In this document: one piece after another, positions 10,671 to 54,839 of the stretch
Layout: each line of letters begins with the position of its first letter
Numbering within the stretch: the first letter of the stretch is position 1
IMG/VR virus record: IMGVR_UViG_3300034175_000022
From: a virus
Strand: one strand, 5' to 3'
DNA: 64,000 nucleotides
Made by a program: the position numbers and the translations under genes
Notes under the pieces: model-generated
The model's input: only the letters and a program-made list of their open reading frames with translations
The model's database searches: none
What the model was told of the DNA's origin: nothing

Positions 10671-12248
10671 ATGCAAACAGTCAGCGGCTCGAACATGACC
10701 ATCGAGAAGAAGTCCTGCACCAGCTGCCCGTCCTACCTCCAGCGAGGGCCGGACGCGACGATGGCCTTTAAGAAGAATGTTGGCGCGCCCATGTGCGCCA
10801 AGTTCGGTCACGTCCTCGGGCGTGGCGGCGACAAGGCGAGCGCGCAGTCCGACAAGGCCATCGCCGAGGAGTTCGCCACCAACTGCAGCCAGTACGGCTA
10901 CACGCGCAGCATCGTCGACCTGCCGATGCCGAGTGTCGCGTTCCCCAATCCCGAGGTGCTGGTCAAGGGCAAGCCGGTCGGCACATCGAGGCTCGGAAGC
11001 TGCGCGATGTGCATCAACTTCATTCCCGAGAGCACCGTACACCGTGAGCTCGGCTGGAACGCTGGCATGTGCTCAGCCAAGGGTCGTCTGATCCTGGGCA
11101 ACAACCTGGCCACGGCGGCTCGAGGCTGCGAGTGGGCTGAGTTCGGGCCGCAGCGCAACAACACCTCGGGCATGACGCTGCTCCCCGCCTTCGACGAGAA
11201 CTTCGGTTCGTCGAAGTTCTCGCTGGCCAAGCAGTTCTTCGAGTCGAAGGCACACTTCGTGGAGCCGCATGAGTACCCGACCGACAAGGACGTGAGCGCC
11301 GAGGACGTTCTCGCTGGCATCCGGGCCTGGCGCAAGGTCACTGACCCCGAGGGTACCGGCAACTTCAGTTTCCTGCCGATCTTCGACCCCAACTACTTCG
11401 ACGAGATCGAGCGCAGCAAGATCCCGCGCAGCGGGGACGACGAGCACCCCGAGATGTACGTCGACCACTTCGGCGGCGTGTACCTCGCGGCGATCGTCTG
11501 GATGGAGCTCGACGAGACTCCCGCACTGTGGGGCGAGGCTGGCGTCGGAAAGACGGAGCTGTTCCGTCACCTCGCGTGGCTGATGTGCCTCCCCTTCGAG
11601 CGCATCTCGATCACCGCCACCACCGAGCTGGACGACCTCATCGGCAAGACGAAGTTCACGCCTGAGCGTGGCACGTTCTTCGAGTACGGTCGTCTGCCGA
11701 AGGCATGGAACAAGCCCTGCGTCGTAGTGCTGGACGAGCCGAACACCGGACAGCCCGAGGTCTGGCAGGTGCTGCGTCCCCTCACGGACAACAGCAAGCA
11801 GCTCGTGGTCGACACTAACGAGGGCGAGCGCATCACGCGCAACGAGTTCGCCTTCCCCGGCTTCGCCATGAATCCCGCCTGGGACCCAAAGAACGTTGGC
11901 ACTCACGAGATCGGTGACGCCGACGCATCGCGCCTGTTCCACGTCTACATCGGACTCCCGCCCGAGGAGCTCGAGCGGGAGATCATCAGCGCCCGCGTCA
12001 AGCTGGATGGCTGGGAGATCAGCCGTCAGCAGCTCGACATGGTGATGAGGGTCGCCACCGATGTTCGAGCCCTCGTCAAGCTCGGTACCCTGCCGATCAC
12101 CTGGGGCATCCGCCCGCAGATCAAGGCCGCTCGTGCGCTGCGCTGGTTCGATCCAGTCACCGCTTACAAGCGAGCCATCGGTGACTTCATGGAGCCCGAA
12201 GCACAAGAGGCTCTGCTCGACCAAGTCCGCGCTCACGCACCGTCCTGA
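10671..12248 (+). CDS. CobS/MoxR-like AAA+ ATPase with a ~190-aa N-terminal extension holding two Cys-rich modules
   Basis: Walker A GEAGVGKT, Walker B VVVLDEPN, general AAA_5/CobS-like layout. N-terminus has a duplicated CxxC...MC(A/S)K(F)G...C pattern. Confidence 0.88.
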   Translation: MQTVSGSNMTIEKKSCTSCPSYLQRGPDATMAFKKNVGAPMCAKFGHVLGRGGDKASAQSDKAIAEEFATNCSQYGYTRSIVDLPMPSVAFPNPEVLVKGKPVGTSRLGSCAMCINFIPESTVHRELGWNAGMCSAKGRLILGNNLATAARGCEWAEFGPQRNNTSGMTLLPAFDENFGSSKFSLAKQFFESKAHFVEPHEYPTDKDVSAEDVLAGIRAWRKVTDPEGTGNFSFLPIFDPNYFDEIERSKIPRSGDDEHPEMYVDHFGGVYLAAIVWMELDETPALWGEAGVGKTELFRHLAWLMCLPFERISITATTELDDLIGKTKFTPERGTFFEYGRLPKAWNKPCVVVLDEPNTGQPEVWQVLRPLTDNSKQLVVDTNEGERITRNEFAFPGFAMNPAWDPKNVGTHEIGDADASRLFHVYIGLPPEELEREIISARVKLDGWEISRQQLDMVMRVATDVRALVKLGTLPITWGIRPQIKAARALRWFDPVTAYKRAIGDFMEPEAQEALLDQVRAHAPS

Positions 12249-28762: not shown

Positions 28763-29055
28763 TGAGGACCGTCTGGCACTTTCAGCTGCCTCTATTCGGC
28801 GCGAACATCGAGATGCCGCTGGGCACTGAGATCGTTCACGTTGGCATCGGGCCCACAACCGACGAAGATCACGTAAGCATGTGGGGACTTGTGAACCCCT
28901 CAATGGTGCTCTTGCCAATCTCCTATGTAGTCATCGGGACCGGTCATCCGGTTACGGATTATCGCTGGAAGTACGTCGGTACTGCAGTCGATCCGGCTCG
29001 CCCTCTCGTCTGGCATGTCTTTGAGACGAATCCTTCTCGGAATGAGAGTCTCTGA
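28762..29055 (+). CDS. Hypothetical protein
   Basis: ORF track. ATGA-type coupling. Confidence 0.6.
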   Translation: MRTVWHFQLPLFGANIEMPLGTEIVHVGIGPTTDEDHVSMWGLVNPSMVLLPISYVVIGTGHPVTDYRWKYVGTAVDPARPLVWHVFETNPSRNESL

Positions 29056-29597
29056 TGGACACGCTCTACCTTCCGATCGACGTGAACCCTGAACCCTGGG
29101 CGATCGGACCTGTCGGGTACGCCAGGCGAGGCGGAAAGATGAGTGCCTACGTCGGCCAGAACAAGCAGCTCGATGCCTACAAGCAGGCTGTCGCGGAGTC
29201 CGCGAAGCCTCTTCTGCCTGCCGATCACATCTTGTGGAACTGTGACATGCAACTGGAGTTCTACTTCTGGCGGCAGCGTGCGGACTACAAGACTCCACAG
29301 GCGCGCACGGCTCGCAAGCACGAAGCCGACCTCACGAACATGGTGAAGGCGACCGAGGATGCACTGCAGGGCGTCGTCTACAAGAACGACCGAGACACGA
29401 AAAGCATTATTGCCCATCTAGTTGAGCAAGGCCCCGATGTTCAAGGAAGGATTCTCGTATGCGTCCGAAGGGAATACTCGGCAAGCTTGTTGACATCGCT
29501 GCCGATCGACGTACTCGCTCGTCTGGAGTCGTTCCGTACCGTGGCACCAGCGACACCCCAGGAGGCGAGGTACCAGGAGGCGCCGGATACCTTCTAG
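29055..29597 (+). CDS. rusA: RusA-family Holliday junction resolvase with a ~43-aa C-terminal extension
   Basis: DLTNMVKATEDALQGVVYKNDRD core motif. GC3 supports this frame up to the TAG at 29595. Confidence 0.85.
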   Translation: MDTLYLPIDVNPEPWAIGPVGYARRGGKMSAYVGQNKQLDAYKQAVAESAKPLLPADHILWNCDMQLEFYFWRQRADYKTPQARTARKHEADLTNMVKATEDALQGVVYKNDRDTKSIIAHLVEQGPDVQGRILVCVRREYSASLLTSLPIDVLARLESFRTVAPATPQEARYQEAPDTF

Positions 29598-29821
29598 GAG
29601 TCACCGTCCACAGCCCGAAGGGCGAACACTGCCAGGTCAACGTTACCTTCGATCGTCACATTGACGAGTCACTCGATTCCTATATCGCAGAGATCATGGT
29701 AGACTCTGGCGATAGTTACAAGCTCGTCACGCGCACGTTCTTCGCGCGGCGTAACGCGCCGCTCCATGAGATCGCAAGTCTTGCCCTACTGAGTGTCCCA
29801 GACGAGAAGGAGCCCGAGTGA
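29459..29821 (+). CDS. ORF of uncertain start. Only 29598-29821 looks coding, and that part has no start codon before the ATG at 29693.
   Basis: GC3 is about 52% in the part overlapping rusA and about 70% after the rusA stop. See finding 29055-29821. Confidence 0.3.
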   Translation: MRPKGILGKLVDIAADRRTRSSGVVPYRGTSDTPGGEVPGGAGYLLGVTVHSPKGEHCQVNVTFDRHIDESLDSYIAEIMVDSGDSYKLVTRTFFARRNAPLHEIASLALLSVPDEKEPE

Positions 29822-30543
29822 CCAAGCCCCTGTTTCAGCAGATCTGGCACGGTGACAGCATCGACCTGTGCGCGAGGTTCAAGCCAGGGTCCGTTGACTG
29901 CATCATCACCGACCCGCCCTTCGGAGTGGACAACCAGTCGAACATGGCGGTGACCACCTCCGGCAAGGATCACGCTCGCAAGATCGCCAACGACGAGAGC
30001 CCTGAGATCGCCATCGCCACCTTCAAGTCCGTGATGGACGTGCTGCTCCCCAAGACGGCAGACGTGTGCGACCTCTACATCTTCACGTCGTACCAGGTGC
30101 TCGAGGACTGGATGCTCATGACTCGTGACTTCCTGGCGCCGCATGGGTTCAAGCGCAAGGCGCTCATCACCTGGGCGAAGGACGGTCCTGGCATGGGTGA
30201 CCTGGAGTGCCCGTGGGGGATGGGCTGCGAGTTCGTGATGTTCTACCAGAAGGGTCGTCGGCCCAAGTCTGCCAAGCGTCGCAACAGCGTGATCCACACG
30301 CCCCAGCTACGACCGGGCGAGCTCATCCACCCTCATGAGAAGCCGCTCCCGCTGCTCGAGCAGTTCATCAAGACCTCCACCGAGGAGAACGACTTTCTCG
30401 TGGACCCGTTCGGTGGCAGCGGATCGCTCGCTCGCGCTGCGCGTAATGTCAACCGCAGCTGCGTGACAATCGAGTACGACGAGCGCAACTACAAGGAGTC
30501 TATTCGCAAGTTCGATGCAACCGACTCGGGCAGTATGTTCTAG
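29818..30543 (+). CDS. DNA methyltransferase (N6-adenine/N4-cytosine, beta class)
   Basis: IITDPPFG (motif IV) precedes DPFGGSGS (motif I). GTGA coupling. Confidence 0.9.
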   Translation: MTKPLFQQIWHGDSIDLCARFKPGSVDCIITDPPFGVDNQSNMAVTTSGKDHARKIANDESPEIAIATFKSVMDVLLPKTADVCDLYIFTSYQVLEDWMLMTRDFLAPHGFKRKALITWAKDGPGMGDLECPWGMGCEFVMFYQKGRRPKSAKRRNSVIHTPQLRPGELIHPHEKPLPLLEQFIKTSTEENDFLVDPFGGSGSLARAARNVNRSCVTIEYDERNYKESIRKFDATDSGSMF

Positions 30544-30584
30544 TGCTCCGATAGGAGGCTCCTACTAGCACCCTTGACGGATAT

Positions 30585-31166
30585 GTGCAATCATGCGGCT
30601 ACGCGCAGCGACCACAACCACTCAAGGGGAACCAGTCTTATGTCGTTGAATCCCGAGTTCGATCCACTCTCCGAAGAGCCCGAGATCATCGACGATGCCG
30701 TCGAGATCTTCCCTGTCACGATGTTCGGCATCGACAACAGCGACCTGGACTTCACGCCGCTGCCCGAGGTGGAGGCAGTCCCAAAAGACTTGTCTGCAGT
30801 GGCATCTGCAGACTCCTCGCTGAAAGACGACGTAAGCCCGGAGATTCCGGTGACGAGTATCCCGTCGGTAAGCCCGGAAACACTTGCGTCTGTGGCGAAG
30901 GACAGTGGGCCGGACAAGGCACCCGAGAGCTCGCCGCCAACTTTCTAGCTCCCGAGAACCTCGACTGGCAGCGCAAGGCCGCGTGTGGCAGGGGGGAAGA
31001 CCCTGACATCTTCTTCCCTGCGAAGAACGACATAGCCGCTGCGAATGCAGCCAAGGCAGTCTGTGCAAGCTGCATCGTACGTGCAGAGTGCAGAGACTGG
31101 AAGAAGGAGTCCAACAGCCGCGATGGCATCTGGGCAGGTGAACGAAGCGTCCGAGGAGAGAAGTAA
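30585..31166 (+). CDS. whiB: WhiB-family domain (domain about 30951-31166). The only in-frame start is GTG 30585, and the stretch 30585-30948 is non-coding-like in this frame.
   Basis: WQRKAACGRGEDPDIFFP...AKAVCASCIVRAEC...GIWAG is a classic WhiB 4-Cys pattern. Confidence 0.7.
   Translation: MQSCGYAQRPQPLKGNQSYVVESRVRSTLRRARDHRRCRRDLPCHDVRHRQQRPGLHAAARGGGSPKRLVCSGICRLLAERRRKPGDSGDEYPVGKPGNTCVCGEGQWAGQGTRELAANFLAPENLDWQRKAACGRGEDPDIFFPAKNDIAAANAAKAVCASCIVRAECRDWKKESNSRDGIWAGERSVRGEK
30640..30948 (+). CDS. Acidic 102-aa protein (possible ATG at 30583 instead); may be the N-terminal part of a frameshifted WhiB fusion
   Basis: GC3 about 74% in this frame. Ends ...SSPPTF-TAG. Confidence 0.55.
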   Translation: MSLNPEFDPLSEEPEIIDDAVEIFPVTMFGIDNSDLDFTPLPEVEAVPKDLSAVASADSSLKDDVSPEIPVTSIPSVSPETLASVAKDSGPDKAPESSPPTF

Positions 31167-31167
31167 C

Positions 31168-31365
31168 ATGCCTGAAGTAAGTAACGAACTCGCGGATGCT
31201 CTTCGCCGCATCGAGAACGCACTCTCCCTGCACACCCCCGTTGACCTTGGCGTCGACGAGGACGGTGAGCCGAGACTCGTTTGCAACACCTGCGAGTGTG
31301 CCGCCCCTTGTCCAACGGCTCGAGCACTGGACGAGACCAGAACCTTCGAGGACGGAAGCCGATGA
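31168..31365 (+). CDS. Hypothetical 65-aa protein
   Basis: ATG 1 nt after the whiB stop, in frame with ORF 31045... Confidence 0.6.
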   Translation: MPEVSNELADALRRIENALSLHTPVDLGVDEDGEPRLVCNTCECAAPCPTARALDETRTFEDGSR

Positions 31366-32531
31366 AGCCATACAGTTTCAGTGCCAGCGCACTGAACACC
31401 GCCGAGTTGTGCATGTCTCGGTACCTGCACGAGAACCTCAATCGGTCCAAGGGCGCAGGCAACTCCGCGGCCAACCTGGGTACCTCGGTACACGGGGCAC
31501 TGGAGATGTATGTCAAGAACTGCATCATCGACAACAAGATCAACGCTGGCCTGCAGACGCTGCTGGACTTCTACAAGCTGTCCTACATGGAGACCTTCCG
31601 TGTCTCGGAGTGTGTCGGTCAGGACTACGAGGACGGCAAGGACATGCTGCGCAAGTGGCACGCTCGAACTGACTTCAGCCAGTTCGAGGTGATCTCCTGC
31701 GAGATCAAGGAGTCCTTCCCGATGCCGACGAGCGAGGGTGACATCCCCTTCAACTACATCTGGGATCGGTTCGACAAGATCGGCGAGAACACGTACCGAG
31801 TGGTCGACTACAAGACCAACCGCTGGGGGATCAACCCCGACGACCTGCGATCCAAGATCCAGGCCCGCTGCTACGGACTGGCTGCACAGATCAAGTATCC
31901 GAACGCTGACCGCATCTGGGTCCAGTTTGACATGCTCCGACACGACGGCCCGGTGGGAATCGGCTTCAGTCGAGAGGACAACATCGCCACCTGGAAGTTC
32001 CTCAAGGGGCTCACTCAGAAGATCATCGACACTGACCCCAAGGACGCCCAGGAGACACTAAACCCCGAGTGTGGGTTCTGCGTCAAGCTCACCACCTGCG
32101 GAGCGGCCCGCAAGAACATCGACGCTGGCGGCATCCTGTCCATCGGCTCAGCCGAGAGGGCCATCGACATCCGCGCCGAGCTCGACTACCAGATGAAGGC
32201 AGCCAAGAAGGCGATCGACGCGATCGACGCGATGATCATCGAAGAGGCGAAGGCCACCGAAATCTTCGAGTGGGAGAGCGAGAGCAACAAGATGTTCCTC
32301 GGAGTCTCTCGCAACCGAGCTGTCGATGCCGACATGGCTGAGCGCGTGGTCGGACCTGACATCTTCAACAAGTATGGCGGCAAGTCCCTCTCGATCGCCA
32401 ACGTAGACAAGCTGCTCAAGGACCCAGACCTCACGCCCGAGCAGAAGTCCCAGCTCAGTGGTTTGATCTACAAGAAGGTCGGCGAGGCCCGCGTCAAGAT
32501 CAAGCCCGCGAACCCTGTCCCTGGAGCCTAG
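31362..32531 (+). CDS. PD-(D/E)xK nuclease, Cas4/RecB-like exonuclease
   Basis: DRFDKIG...VVDYKT (D...D/ExK), QARCYGLA (QxxxY), N-terminal C plus C-terminal CGFC...C cluster. Confidence 0.82.
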   Translation: MKPYSFSASALNTAELCMSRYLHENLNRSKGAGNSAANLGTSVHGALEMYVKNCIIDNKINAGLQTLLDFYKLSYMETFRVSECVGQDYEDGKDMLRKWHARTDFSQFEVISCEIKESFPMPTSEGDIPFNYIWDRFDKIGENTYRVVDYKTNRWGINPDDLRSKIQARCYGLAAQIKYPNADRIWVQFDMLRHDGPVGIGFSREDNIATWKFLKGLTQKIIDTDPKDAQETLNPECGFCVKLTTCGAARKNIDAGGILSIGSAERAIDIRAELDYQMKAAKKAIDAIDAMIIEEAKATEIFEWESESNKMFLGVSRNRAVDADMAERVVGPDIFNKYGGKSLSIANVDKLLKDPDLTPEQKSQLSGLIYKKVGEARVKIKPANPVPGA

Positions 32532-54057: not shown

Positions 54058-54839
54058 CTATCGACTCCTGGAAGCACCGCCAGGGGACTTGCCGCGCTTC
54101 CCCTTGCCCTCTTCCTTCTTTCGCTCTGCGGCTTCGTACTCCGCTTGAGCTCCAAAGATGTACTGAAAGCCATCCAGCAAGTCAGGATGCTGATCGTACA
54201 AGCCGCCGGCCTCAGGCAGGTGATTCCACTTCATACTCGCACACATCGAGAACATCTTGATGATCGGGTGTGCGTTTATGACCTGCTTGCCAGCGACGTA
54301 GTCAGCTACCTGCCGCTGGAAGAGGCTTCCCCCCGCTCACGCTCCACGGCGGCGGTGTACTGCTCCTCGAGCTCCTCGATGCCCTTGCGGATCTCGGCAG
54401 AGGGGATCTGGTCCGTGAGCCAGGGGTTCTCGCGACGGATCGCGTTCTCCAGGTCCTCGACCAGCTTCGGGTTGCCCAGCTCGAGGAAGTCGCGCAGTGC
54501 ACGCTCACCGAAGGGAAGCGGCGCGCCGCCCCGAGTGAGGTTCCAGCTGGTGACGGACTGCAGGATGAGCTGGTGGCGAGCCTCGGCCTGGTCGACTCGC
54601 AGGCGGGACTCGTTGCCGTTCTTGGCGATGATGAGGTCACTCGACGTGGCCTTCTGGTACTTCTTCTTCTTGCCCTCGTTCATGGTCACGAAGGCGATGT
54701 AGGTCACCCCGTCGGGGAAGTAGAACTTCTTCTCGGCCGAGAAGCCGAAGTAGTCGTCCTGCTTGGGGGGCGCCTGGACAGGCTCGTCAGCGACGGGAAA
54801 GCTCTGGTGAAACTGCGGCTCGGTGCTGGGAACGGACAT
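54058..54839 (-). CDS. Tail assembly chaperone, -1 frameshift product (gpGT-like)
   Basis: The -1 frame stays open from the G-run (C-run 54329-54334 on +) to the stop at 54058. The extension contains PEAGGLYDQHP. Confidence 0.6.
54306..54839 (-). CDS. Tail assembly chaperone (gpG-like)
   Basis: Sits between the major tail and tape measure genes. ORF track. Confidence 0.8.
   Translation of the reverse strand: MSVPSTEPQFHQSFPVADEPVQAPPKQDDYFGFSAEKKFYFPDGVTYIAFVTMNEGKKKKYQKATSSDLIIAKNGNESRLRVDQAEARHQLILQSVTSWNLTRGGAPLPFGERALRDFLELGNPKLVEDLENAIRRENPWLTDQIPSAEIRKGIEELEEQYTAAVERERGEASSSGR

Follow-up and report, generated by a model that had tools for sequence, protein, structure and literature searches.

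A WhiB domain one base back from an acidic open reading frame

The window, by which we mean the whole 64,000-nt stretch of viral DNA analysed here (IMG/VR record IMGVR_UViG_3300034175_000022), carries an acidic open reading frame (ORF) with a WhiB domain behind it in another frame. The locus lies in the early/replication arm, with a DNA methyltransferase on one side and a Cas4-like exonuclease on the other. We call the frame of the acidic ORF the 0 frame; the WhiB-bearing frame, 30585-31166, lies one base back from it and is called the -1 frame. The following features define the locus.

30624-30631, + strand: Shine-Dalgarno-like (SD-like) element AAGGGGAA, 8 nt 5' of ATG 30640
30640-30948, + strand: acidic 0-frame ORF, 102 aa plus TAG (ATG 30640, TAG 30946-30948)
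30942-30948, + strand: T_TTC_TAG, the 0-frame stop, overlapping the -1-frame codons F-L(CTA)-A
30966-31139, + strand: WhiB (Wbl) domain, Pfam PF02467 (E 6.1e-15, 56 bits against a cut-off of 23.6)

Judged from the sequence, ATG 30640 with its SD-like element AAGGGGAA is likely the true start of the 0-frame ORF, and the 0-frame ORFs of relatives likewise open with MS[DEL]... A promoter scan over 30300-31500 found none. The 0-frame protein ends in SSPPTF and its GC3, recomputed here, is 0.735, in agreement with a previous sequence-only reading of this DNA, which had given the same end and a GC3 of about 74%. Residues 1-49 bear the family motif D-F-[RST]-P (DLDFTPLP in the window) and would be common to the trans-frame product proposed below, and residues 50-102 form a Ser/Pro/acidic tail in which purifying selection is not seen in relatives. 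The N-terminal domain has no Pfam match. In PHROGs, the sole match is phrog_6890 'endonuclease', obtained for the CS-type upstream ORF and lacking Pfam support; the RefSeq name of the upstream ORF is also 'endonuclease', and domain support for it is absent.

By profile and cysteine pattern, the downstream domain is a member of the WhiB-like (Wbl) family PF02467. Its cysteines are arranged as AAC(GRGEDPDIFFPAKNDIAAANAAKAV)CASCIVRAEC ... GIWAG, with the spacing C-x25-C-x2-C-x5-C and a G-I-W-A-G turn, and the four cluster-ligand cysteines and the G-[IV]-W-G-G-type turn residues are invariant across 17 relatives. Profile matches in the PDB are to WhiB, WhiB1, WhiB3, WhiB4 and WhiB7, the best solved relatives being Streptomyces WhiB (8DY7_H, E 5e-17) and WhiB1 (5OAY/6ONO).

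Between the upstream stop (30552-54) and 31164, the sole ATG, GTG or TTG in the WhiB frame is GTG 30585, and the further near-cognate codons are ATC and ATA only. The GC3 of this frame is 0.46 over 30585-30947. Our frame scan and the Pfam match thus bear out the sequence-only reading on two points, that a WhiB domain without a usable start codon sits in the -1 frame behind the 102-aa acidic ORF and that GTG 30585 is the lone start codon of that frame. Four metagenome samples each yielded a contig with the same DNA, without indel or mismatch (ENA ERZ27253126, JGI 3300034236, ENA ERZ27253098 and Logan SRR10953936, one of which may be the window's own record), and the frame break is therefore not an assembly artefact.

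A slippery heptamer conserved in related phages

Three features mark the proposed change of frame in the window.

30780-30786, + strand: slippery heptamer C_CCA_AAA, proposed -1 frameshift site, in X_XXY_YYZ register with the 0-frame ORF
30786-31166, + strand: predicted -1-frame coding part of the trans-frame product, 126 aa plus TAA (31164-66)
30795-30902, + strand: 4-Cys module C-S-G-I-C ... C-V-C-G-E-G, conserved and outside known families

CCA and AAA of the heptamer are 0-frame codons, and CCCAAAA occurs once in the 64-kb window, both strands included, at 30780-86. The frame break itself is kept in all 28 related loci, and 28 of the 28 (about 14 phage lineages: Gordonia cluster CS, the GordDuk1 group, TIN2-4, ReqiDocB7, Perlina and metagenomic contigs) have C_CCA_AAA or C_CCT_TTA at the homologous, in-register position, both variants retaining the X_XXY_YYZ form. 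Across these loci, the heptamer lies about 150-310 nt 5' of the 0-frame stop; in the window, it is about 160 nt upstream of T_TTC_TAG. After the heptamer, the -1 frame reads P-[KF]-R..C-x-G-[IV]-C...C-x-C-G-E-G...WhiB in the 28 loci, at identities among the lineages of mostly 38-67%. The A-site codons are very rare: AAA accounts for 2 of the 212 Lys codons (0.9%) in the window's genes and UUA/TTA for 0 of 74 Leu codons in the Gorko locus. The codon preceding AAA in the window, CCA, makes up 17 of 240 Pro codons (7%).

The module between the heptamer and the WhiB domain is marked by the invariant residues P, R, C, G, C, C, C, G and G in 17 aligned sequences (38-95% identical). It has no Pfam match, and AlphaFold2 models of the post-slip protein, made with 11- and 17-sequence alignments, gave the extension a pLDDT below 50 without a confident fold.

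Purifying selection switches frames at the heptamer

In ten CS2/CS3 Gordonia phages, which formed the dN/dS set, purifying selection marks the 0 frame up to the heptamer and the -1 frame beyond it. On the 5' side, the 0 frame has a dN/dS of 0.19 and the -1 frame one of 2.35; across the overlap, the values are 1.05 for the 0 frame and 0.41 for the -1 frame; and in WhiB, the -1 frame has a value of 0.09. Variable columns favour 0-frame third positions before the heptamer (37/50) and, exactly from the heptamer on, -1-frame third positions (10/26 columns versus 4/26 and 2/27). Codon periodicity was seen in neither frame in the second half of the overlap. In the window, the GC3 of the 0-frame ORF goes from 0.85 on the 5' side of the heptamer to 0.66 on the 3' side. 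The -1 peptide, earlier described as Arg-rich and off-frame-like, contains the conserved 4-Cys module, and its frame has a dN/dS of 0.41 in the CS2/3 overlap.

We also considered dual coding, in which selection would keep the 0-frame tail open. In simulations, the -1 peptide was synonymously recoded and an open 0 frame was scored, giving P(sim >= obs) from 0.08 to 0.998. An open 0 frame is therefore unsurprising and, because the 0-frame dN/dS in the overlap is also about 1, we rejected dual coding.

Candidate stimulators around the heptamer

Two elements flank the heptamer in the window.

30766-30775, + strand: internal SD-like element GAGGTGGAGG, possible frameshift stimulator, 4 nt 5' of the heptamer
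30792-30813, + strand: hairpin with an 8-bp stem (GTCTGCAG / CTGCAGAC) and a 6-nt loop, possible local stimulator, 5 nt past the heptamer

The predicted duplex of GAGGTGGAGG with the anti-SD has an energy of -10.4 kcal/mol, which places it among the strongest 3% of the 24-nt windows nearby. SD-like elements are also found in relatives at a variable spacing of 3-15 nt 5' of the heptamer, and in 12 of 15 lineages they rank within the best 10% of local windows. The hairpin has a centroid energy of -13.8 kcal/mol (z = -1.68), and 11 of 200 shuffled sequences fold equally well; it is neither kept in relatives nor supported by covariation there. With RNAalifold, neither heptamer group revealed a conserved downstream RNA structure (-1.4 and -2.0 kcal/mol, covariation essentially nil), and the per-sequence MFE z-scores downstream of the heptamer are mostly unremarkable.

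A programmed -1 frameshift as the probable route to the WhiB domain

We propose, with a probability of about 85%, that the WhiB-like gene is expressed via a programmed -1 ribosomal frameshift at C_CCA_AAA. The proposal is supported by a conserved heptamer in register, by -1 frames that, in several lineages, offer no other point of entry, by the switch in selection and by the rare A-site codons. That slippage occurs, and with what efficiency, is inferred. The WhiB gene has no start codon most likely because its product is made by this conserved slip.

In the proposed mechanism, ribosomes would start at ATG 30640 and read 49 codons of the acidic ORF until C_CCA_AAA is reached, with the very rare Lys codon AAA in the A site. 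A fraction of them would then slip by -1, tRNA-Pro moving from CCA to CCC and tRNA-Lys from AAA to AAA, or, alternatively, the P-site tRNA alone may slip while the A site is empty, and the slipped ribosomes would read the -1 frame through to TAA 31164-66. One mRNA would thereby give a 102-aa 0-frame protein, consisting of the N-terminal domain and an unconstrained tail, and a predicted 175-aa trans-frame protein, consisting of residues 1-49, the invariant 4-Cys module and WhiB. The SD-like element upstream and the local hairpin may assist the slip, and each of the two products may have a role of its own. By its family membership, the long form would carry a [4Fe-4S]-type WhiB domain, and by analogy with other Wbl proteins it probably binds sigma-A region 4 of the host RNA polymerase.

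Independent initiation of the WhiB frame, with no frameshift, at GTG 30585 or elsewhere, from a non-canonical codon or from an internal one of the kind that GenBank annotators have chosen (ATG, giving a 33-66-aa 'WhiB'), seems to us quite unlikely. The -1 frame of the window is indeed open from GTG 30585, which would give 193 aa, but this codon has no SD, and the GC3 of the -1 frame 5' of the heptamer is 0.30-0.38 versus about 0.84 for the window's genes, so that GTG 30585 stands in a stretch of non-coding composition. In relatives, moreover, a stop closes the -1 frame 0-90 nt 5' of the heptamer, with no ATG, GTG or TTG between there and WhiB. In six lineages it opens just 0-30 nt 5' of the heptamer; a stop stands directly at the heptamer in GordDuk1, Gmala1 and L178, 3 nt before it in L015 and L184, 9 nt in L187 and 30 nt in L182. 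Internal ATGs are present just past the conserved Trp in ReqiDocB7, Perlina and L181, and the CS phages have one that yields a 33-aa product, but this product is without two of the four cluster cysteines, and both short forms lose the conserved Trp and the 4-Cys module that is under purifying selection.

Transcriptional slippage, in which a base added or dropped by RNA polymerase within A4 or T3 would bring the fusion into one frame of the mRNA, could draw on the short homopolymers at the sites (AAAA; TTT). In the known cases, however, productive slippage of this kind requires A or T runs of roughly at least 7, and the runs here are just 4 and 3. The conserved feature is also a codon-register X_XXY_YYZ, which is relevant to tRNAs and not to RNA polymerase, and we regard this explanation as very improbable.

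The sequence-only reading had itself proposed a -1 frameshift, with the P-site tRNA-Phe slipping at U_UUC while UAG occupies the A site (30942-30948) and the full 102-aa protein being fused to WhiB. Our analysis supports a -1 frameshift from the upstream ORF, and does not support this site or product: a slip at the heptamer would join the frames after residue 49, not residue 102, and would add the conserved 4-Cys module. In the window, TTT does overlap TTC right before TAG (the -1-frame codon CTA there accounts for 9 of 282 Leu codons in the window's genes), and a 0-frame stop over -1-frame F-L codons recurs in ReqiDocB7, Perlina and GMA7. In the alignment, however, relatives do not share this context: ReqiDocB7 has T_TCT_TAG at the homologous positions, Perlina has T_TCC_TAG and GMA7 has T_TCT_TAA, and with TCT or TCC as the last sense codon, -1 re-pairing is impossible. 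The 0-frame stop lies inside the WhiB domain, past its first Cys, in the CS2/3 and TIN phages, and 5' of the invariant C-x-C-G-E-G motif of the -1 frame in GordDuk1. In addition, purifying selection on the -1 frame begins about 160 nt farther upstream, and the four invariant cysteines of the extension would stay untranslated. We therefore hold a slip at T_TTC_TAG to be highly implausible. A second TTC-TAG, at the rusA junction (29595), is without an in-register heptamer and does not appear to work in the way proposed for C_CCA_AAA.

A sequencing or assembly error or a decaying pseudogene had been offered as an alternative, and a 1-nt error would resemble a frame break without a start codon. 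This reading is effectively refuted by the four identical assemblies from four samples, by the same break in 28 loci that include about 90 finished isolate genomes, and by the WhiB dN/dS of 0.09, which reflects strong purifying selection.

Searches for homologues

A naturally in-frame fused homologue was found neither among 5.8 billion clusters by word-based search nor among 1.84 billion representatives by profile search. With the 175-aa fusion as the query, the word-based search returned just the window's 102-aa ORF and generic WhiBs, and the profile search matched the WhiB part alone, except for two relative fragments, P0011 and P0012, which led to the loci L178 and L181, frameshifted as well. 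A metagenome scan with the alignment as the query gave no new full-length member, its matches being swamped by ordinary WhiB genes. In bacterial genomes, the site-specific DNA pattern for C_CCA_AAA had 0 matches in 596 Gb and that for C_CCT_TTA had 51 chance matches, 0 of them in Actinobacteria, and no prophage copies were found by these heptamer patterns. Three pattern matches in viral contigs (L193, L195 and L197) were set aside as chance matches.

The WhiB match is present in 92 phage records, a dozen of which were inspected. In these, WhiB is a 33-aa 'WhiB', or has no gene, or is cut past the conserved Trp, and none of the GenBank records examined joins the two frames. Our literature search found no published description of the frameshift proposed here.

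Discussion

The proposed frameshift resembles that of the phage tail assembly chaperones G/GT (lambda G_GGA_AAG and its actinophage equivalents), likewise a conserved -1 frameshift at X_XXY_YYZ in siphophages. As in G/GT, the longer functional fusion would be the frameshift product, and the two products would share an N-terminus and be made in a fixed ratio from a single mRNA. The WhiB gene, however, lies in the early/replication arm and encodes a transcription-factor domain rather than a structural chaperone, and its slippery site, C_CCA_AAA or C_CCU_UUA, places a rare codon in the A site. The window appears to have a separate G/GT-type site at about 54327-54335 on the - strand.

Escherichia coli dnaX (tau/gamma) and the IS3-family OrfA/OrfAB use a heptamer -1 slip with an upstream internal SD-like aid on the bacterial ribosome, as may the WhiB loci, and in IS3 elements overlapping frames give a short N-terminal protein and an N-terminal-plus-effector fusion, as proposed here. 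Their sites, however, combine A_AAA_AAG with a strong conserved downstream hairpin or pseudoknot, whereas none that is conserved was found at the WhiB sites, where the SD-like spacing is variable. In dnaX, the shifted product is the shorter one.

The Wbl proteins of PF02467 include Streptomyces WhiB, Mycobacterium WhiB1-7 and the WhiB of mycobacteriophage TM4. The C-terminal 58 residues of the predicted fusion fit this family in their C-x25-C-x2-C-x5-C spacing and their G-[IV]-W-[GA]-G turn, and they score well above the Pfam cut-off. Ordinary Wbl proteins, however, have about 80-130 aa and are encoded by a single ORF with its own start codon, whereas the WhiB domain of the window follows an N-terminal domain with the DF[RST]P motif and the 4-Cys module, neither of which belongs to a known family, and would be reachable by recoding only.

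In the public records examined, a transcription-factor gene is absent or cut short throughout an actinophage group that comprises Gordonia cluster CS, GordDuk1-like phages, Tsukamurella TIN2-4, Rhodococcus ReqiDocB7 and Perlina and several uncultured phages. With the proposed frameshift, a regulatory protein would join the few phage genes in which -1 frameshifting is known, and the Wbl family would gain a new architecture, N-terminal domain plus 4-Cys module plus WhiB. The natural set of C_CCA_AAA and C_CCU_UUA sites, with rare A-site codons and no obvious conserved downstream structure, is suited to the study of slippage on actinobacterial ribosomes, and Monty, Woes and GTE7, which grow on Gordonia terrae, are cultivable members in which the frameshift is directly testable.

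The short and long forms could act differently on the host RNA polymerase. A further idea, which we consider doubtful, is that the frameshift is a sensor beyond a fixed-ratio device, with the invariant 4-Cys module as a second metal or redox centre for the Wbl domain. Both heptamer variants have one of the rarest codons of these high-GC systems (AAA, or the bldA-type UUA) in the A site. If the idea were true, the share of ribosomes making the 8-Cys WhiB fusion would vary with how abundant or how well charged a rare host tRNA is, and the output of a phage transcription factor would be coupled to the growth or developmental state of the host.

A WhiB domain in the -1 frame of an acidic ORF

The sequence-only reading had described an acidic ORF of high GC3, followed by a WhiB domain without a usable start codon in a -1 frame of about 50% GC3. 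All of this was confirmed: the domain is detected by Pfam at E 6.1e-15 (56 bits vs a cut-off of 23.6), the GTG at 30585 is the only ATG, GTG or TTG in the WhiB frame, and GC3 is 0.46 in this frame versus 0.735 in the acidic frame. The gene order is DNA methyltransferase, acidic ORF, WhiB and Cas4-type exonuclease.

Features of the locus in the window
29818-30543, DNA methyltransferase gene, upstream neighbour
30585-31166, + strand, WhiB-carrying -1 frame, open one base back from the acidic ORF
30640 (ATG) to 30946-48 (TAG), + strand, acidic 0-frame ORF of 102 aa
30766-75, + strand, SD-like element GAGGTGGAGG with a predicted anti-SD duplex
30780-30786, + strand, proposed slip heptamer C_CCA_AAA
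30966-31139, + strand, WhiB domain (PF02467)
31281-32531, Cas4-type exonuclease gene, downstream neighbour

The alternative of a 1-nt assembly error is excluded because four contigs from four metagenome samples carry the locus DNA without a single difference. A DNA-level search of the phage collection returned no close relative of the window. At the protein level, tblastn with the WhiB part matched 92 phage records (Gordonia, Tsukamurella and Rhodococcus phages and three Mycobacterium phages). The three Mycobacterium phages have an ordinary annotated WhiB, and in most of the remaining records the match spans two annotated genes or falls in no gene. Gorko, John316, MrWormie and Diabla list a 140-aa 'hypothetical protein' and, behind it, a 33-aa 'WhiB family transcription factor' whose start lies 3' of the second cluster Cys; in PokyPuppy, RoyalG, HayZem, GMA7, TIN2 and TIN3 the WhiB gene is absent from the annotation; and in ReqiDocB7 and Perlina it starts at an ATG directly after the conserved Trp. 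None of these twelve records contains a joined CDS, and our literature search found no paper mentioning a frameshift at the WhiB locus. Public annotation of the locus is inconsistent across this dozen (L001 2106-2704; L002; L003 1073-1701; L004 1115-1719; L005 1184-1704; L007 1199-1710; L168-L173). RefSeq calls the upstream ORF 'endonuclease' (phrog_6890), and Pfam detects no domain there. The frame break itself is conserved in the related phages, and three-frame translation places the WhiB frame at -1 relative to the upstream ORF in every inspected record.

A conserved heptamer marks the probable entry into the WhiB frame

Conservation in the -1 frame reaches far 5' of the WhiB domain (P-[KF]-R-(LV)-C-x-G-[IV]-C ... 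C-x-C-G-E-G ... F ... W..C), and a canonical heptamer sits where it starts. Every locus has C_CCA_AAA (window, ReqiDocB7, Perlina, GordDuk1/Gmala1, L015) or C_CCT_TTA (cluster CS1-CS4, TIN2/3), with both triplets as 0-frame codons. Two fragments from a profile search led to lineages L178 and L181, and L182, L184 and L187 were recovered with a site-specific DNA pattern, giving 28 loci in about 14 lineages, with -1 product identity mostly 38-67%. The heptamer is preceded by a -1-frame stop at a distance of 0 nt in GordDuk1, Gmala1 and L178, 3 nt in L015 and L184, 9 nt in L187 and 30 nt in L182, and these phages have no other entry into the frame; in most lineages, stops interrupt the -1 frame ≤120 nt upstream. 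The 64-kb window contains a single CCCAAAA. The 30-nt site pattern of the C_CCA_AAA form, CCCAAAAGRCTNNTNTGYNNNGGNNTNTGY, matched nothing in 596 Gb of bacterial and archaeal genomes, and its 8 viral-contig matches are all true members. By these data, the module is phage-only, without prophage copies.

An acidic::WhiB fusion by -1 frameshifting is still probable, but the site and product first predicted do not hold. The slip had been placed at T_TTC_TAG, at the stop of the acidic ORF, which is not conserved as a slippery sequence (equivalents are T_TCT_TAG, T_TCC_TAG and T_TCT_TAA); moreover, the CS and TIN phages have the stop inside WhiB, and that of GordDuk1 precedes CxCGEG. A rare -1-frame Leu codon, CTA or TTA, creates the 0-frame stop in four lineages (window 30945-30947; L005, L007 and L003 at homologous F-L codons); among Leu codons in the window's genes, CTA accounts for 3% and TTA for 0%. 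This arrangement may have been selected because it closes the 0 frame shortly ahead of the WhiB domain.

Selection switches frame at the heptamer

Pairwise Nei-Gojobori dN/dS on a gap-free alignment of ten CS2/CS3 phages, one subgroup with non-independent pairs (other pairs being too similar or too divergent to inform), was 0.19 in the 0 frame versus 2.35 in the -1 frame over the 150 nt upstream of the heptamer, 1.05 versus 0.41 in the overlap, where both frames run, and 4.82 versus 0.09 in the WhiB region. Selection thus switches frame at the heptamer. In the same phages, variable columns upstream fall at 0-frame third positions (37/50 vs 14/50 and 12/50), and in the first 80 nt past the heptamer at -1-frame third positions (10/26 vs 4/26 and 2/27); the latter half of the overlap is a variable linker and lacks periodicity. 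In the window, 0-frame GC3 is 0.85 before the heptamer, as is usual for its genes, and 0.66 after it, and across lineages the mean BLOSUM62 global score of the overlap is 50.7 in the -1 frame versus 31.8 in the 0 frame. Dual coding does not follow from the long open 0-frame tail: when synonymous recodings of the -1 peptide were simulated, the tail stayed open at about the observed frequency.

Rare codons and candidate stimulators

CCA-AAA is anomalous in a genome with GC3 of ~0.84. AAA makes up 2/212 Lys codons and CCA 17/240 Pro codons in the window's genes, and TTA 0/74 Leu codons at the Gorko locus; therefore, both heptamer variants have a very rare A-site codon, next to a P-site tRNA-Pro that is able to re-pair on CCC. 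The heptamer is preceded, at 3-15 nt, by SD-like elements whose anti-SD duplexes are predicted at -6 to -10 kcal/mol; these elements rank among the best 10% of local windows in 12/15 lineages. In the window, an 8-bp hairpin (-13.8 kcal/mol, z = -1.68) follows 5 nt after the heptamer; no conserved or covarying downstream RNA structure was found in the relatives. Both elements are candidate stimulators only. Transcriptional slippage in the A4 or T3 run could also yield a fusion, but it is very improbable, as such runs are too short for it and the conserved feature is a codon-register pattern.

Other sites in the window

A second TTC-TAG junction, in the region 29055-29821, follows rusA (stop 29595-97), and a small ORF continues there in the -1 frame. 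The whole overlap contains no X_XXY_YYZ heptamer in register, so the junction does not resemble the WhiB case. The ORF 5' of the 2324-aa tape-measure gene (54306-54839, - strand) reads ...CGG GGG GAA GCC... just before its TAG (around 54327-54335), past which the -1 frame is open; this is probably the tail-assembly-chaperone G/GT frameshift, on a G6 run rather than a canonical heptamer. ARAGORN called an 83-nt tRNA-Cys (GCA) at 12001-12083 (+ strand) within a long ORF (10671-12248); the call may be spurious or mark an embedded tRNA-like element.

Predicted products

The 0-frame product has 102 aa, and the predicted trans-frame product has 175 aa, reading MSLNPEF...EVEAVPK followed by RLVCSGIC...CVCGEG...DWQRKAAC...GIWAGERSVRGEK. 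A D-F-[RST]-P-type motif, present across the family, lies in their common N-terminal part. N-terminal domains of the cluster CS and TIN phages (L001 2106-2360; L003, L004, L016) are ~40 aa longer than that of the window and contain T-A-F-[EQ] repeats (QTAFEQH..QTAFQSE..KTAFELE), absent from the C_CCA_AAA group. Four invariant Cys in the extension and the four ligands of WhiB make eight invariant Cys. The nearest matches to the WhiB part are Streptomyces WhiB (8DY7) and WhiB1; nothing in Pfam or PHROGs accounts for the N-terminal domain or the 4-Cys module, and AlphaFold2 gave no confident model for either. While -1 frameshifting is a classical mechanism, the 4-Cys-WhiB architecture and the rare-codon heptamers are less ordinary. 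The long form would act as a Wbl-type factor docking on sigma-A region 4, and the short N-domain-only form, which would be made in excess, may be a competitor, a regulator or a mere by-product of the long form.
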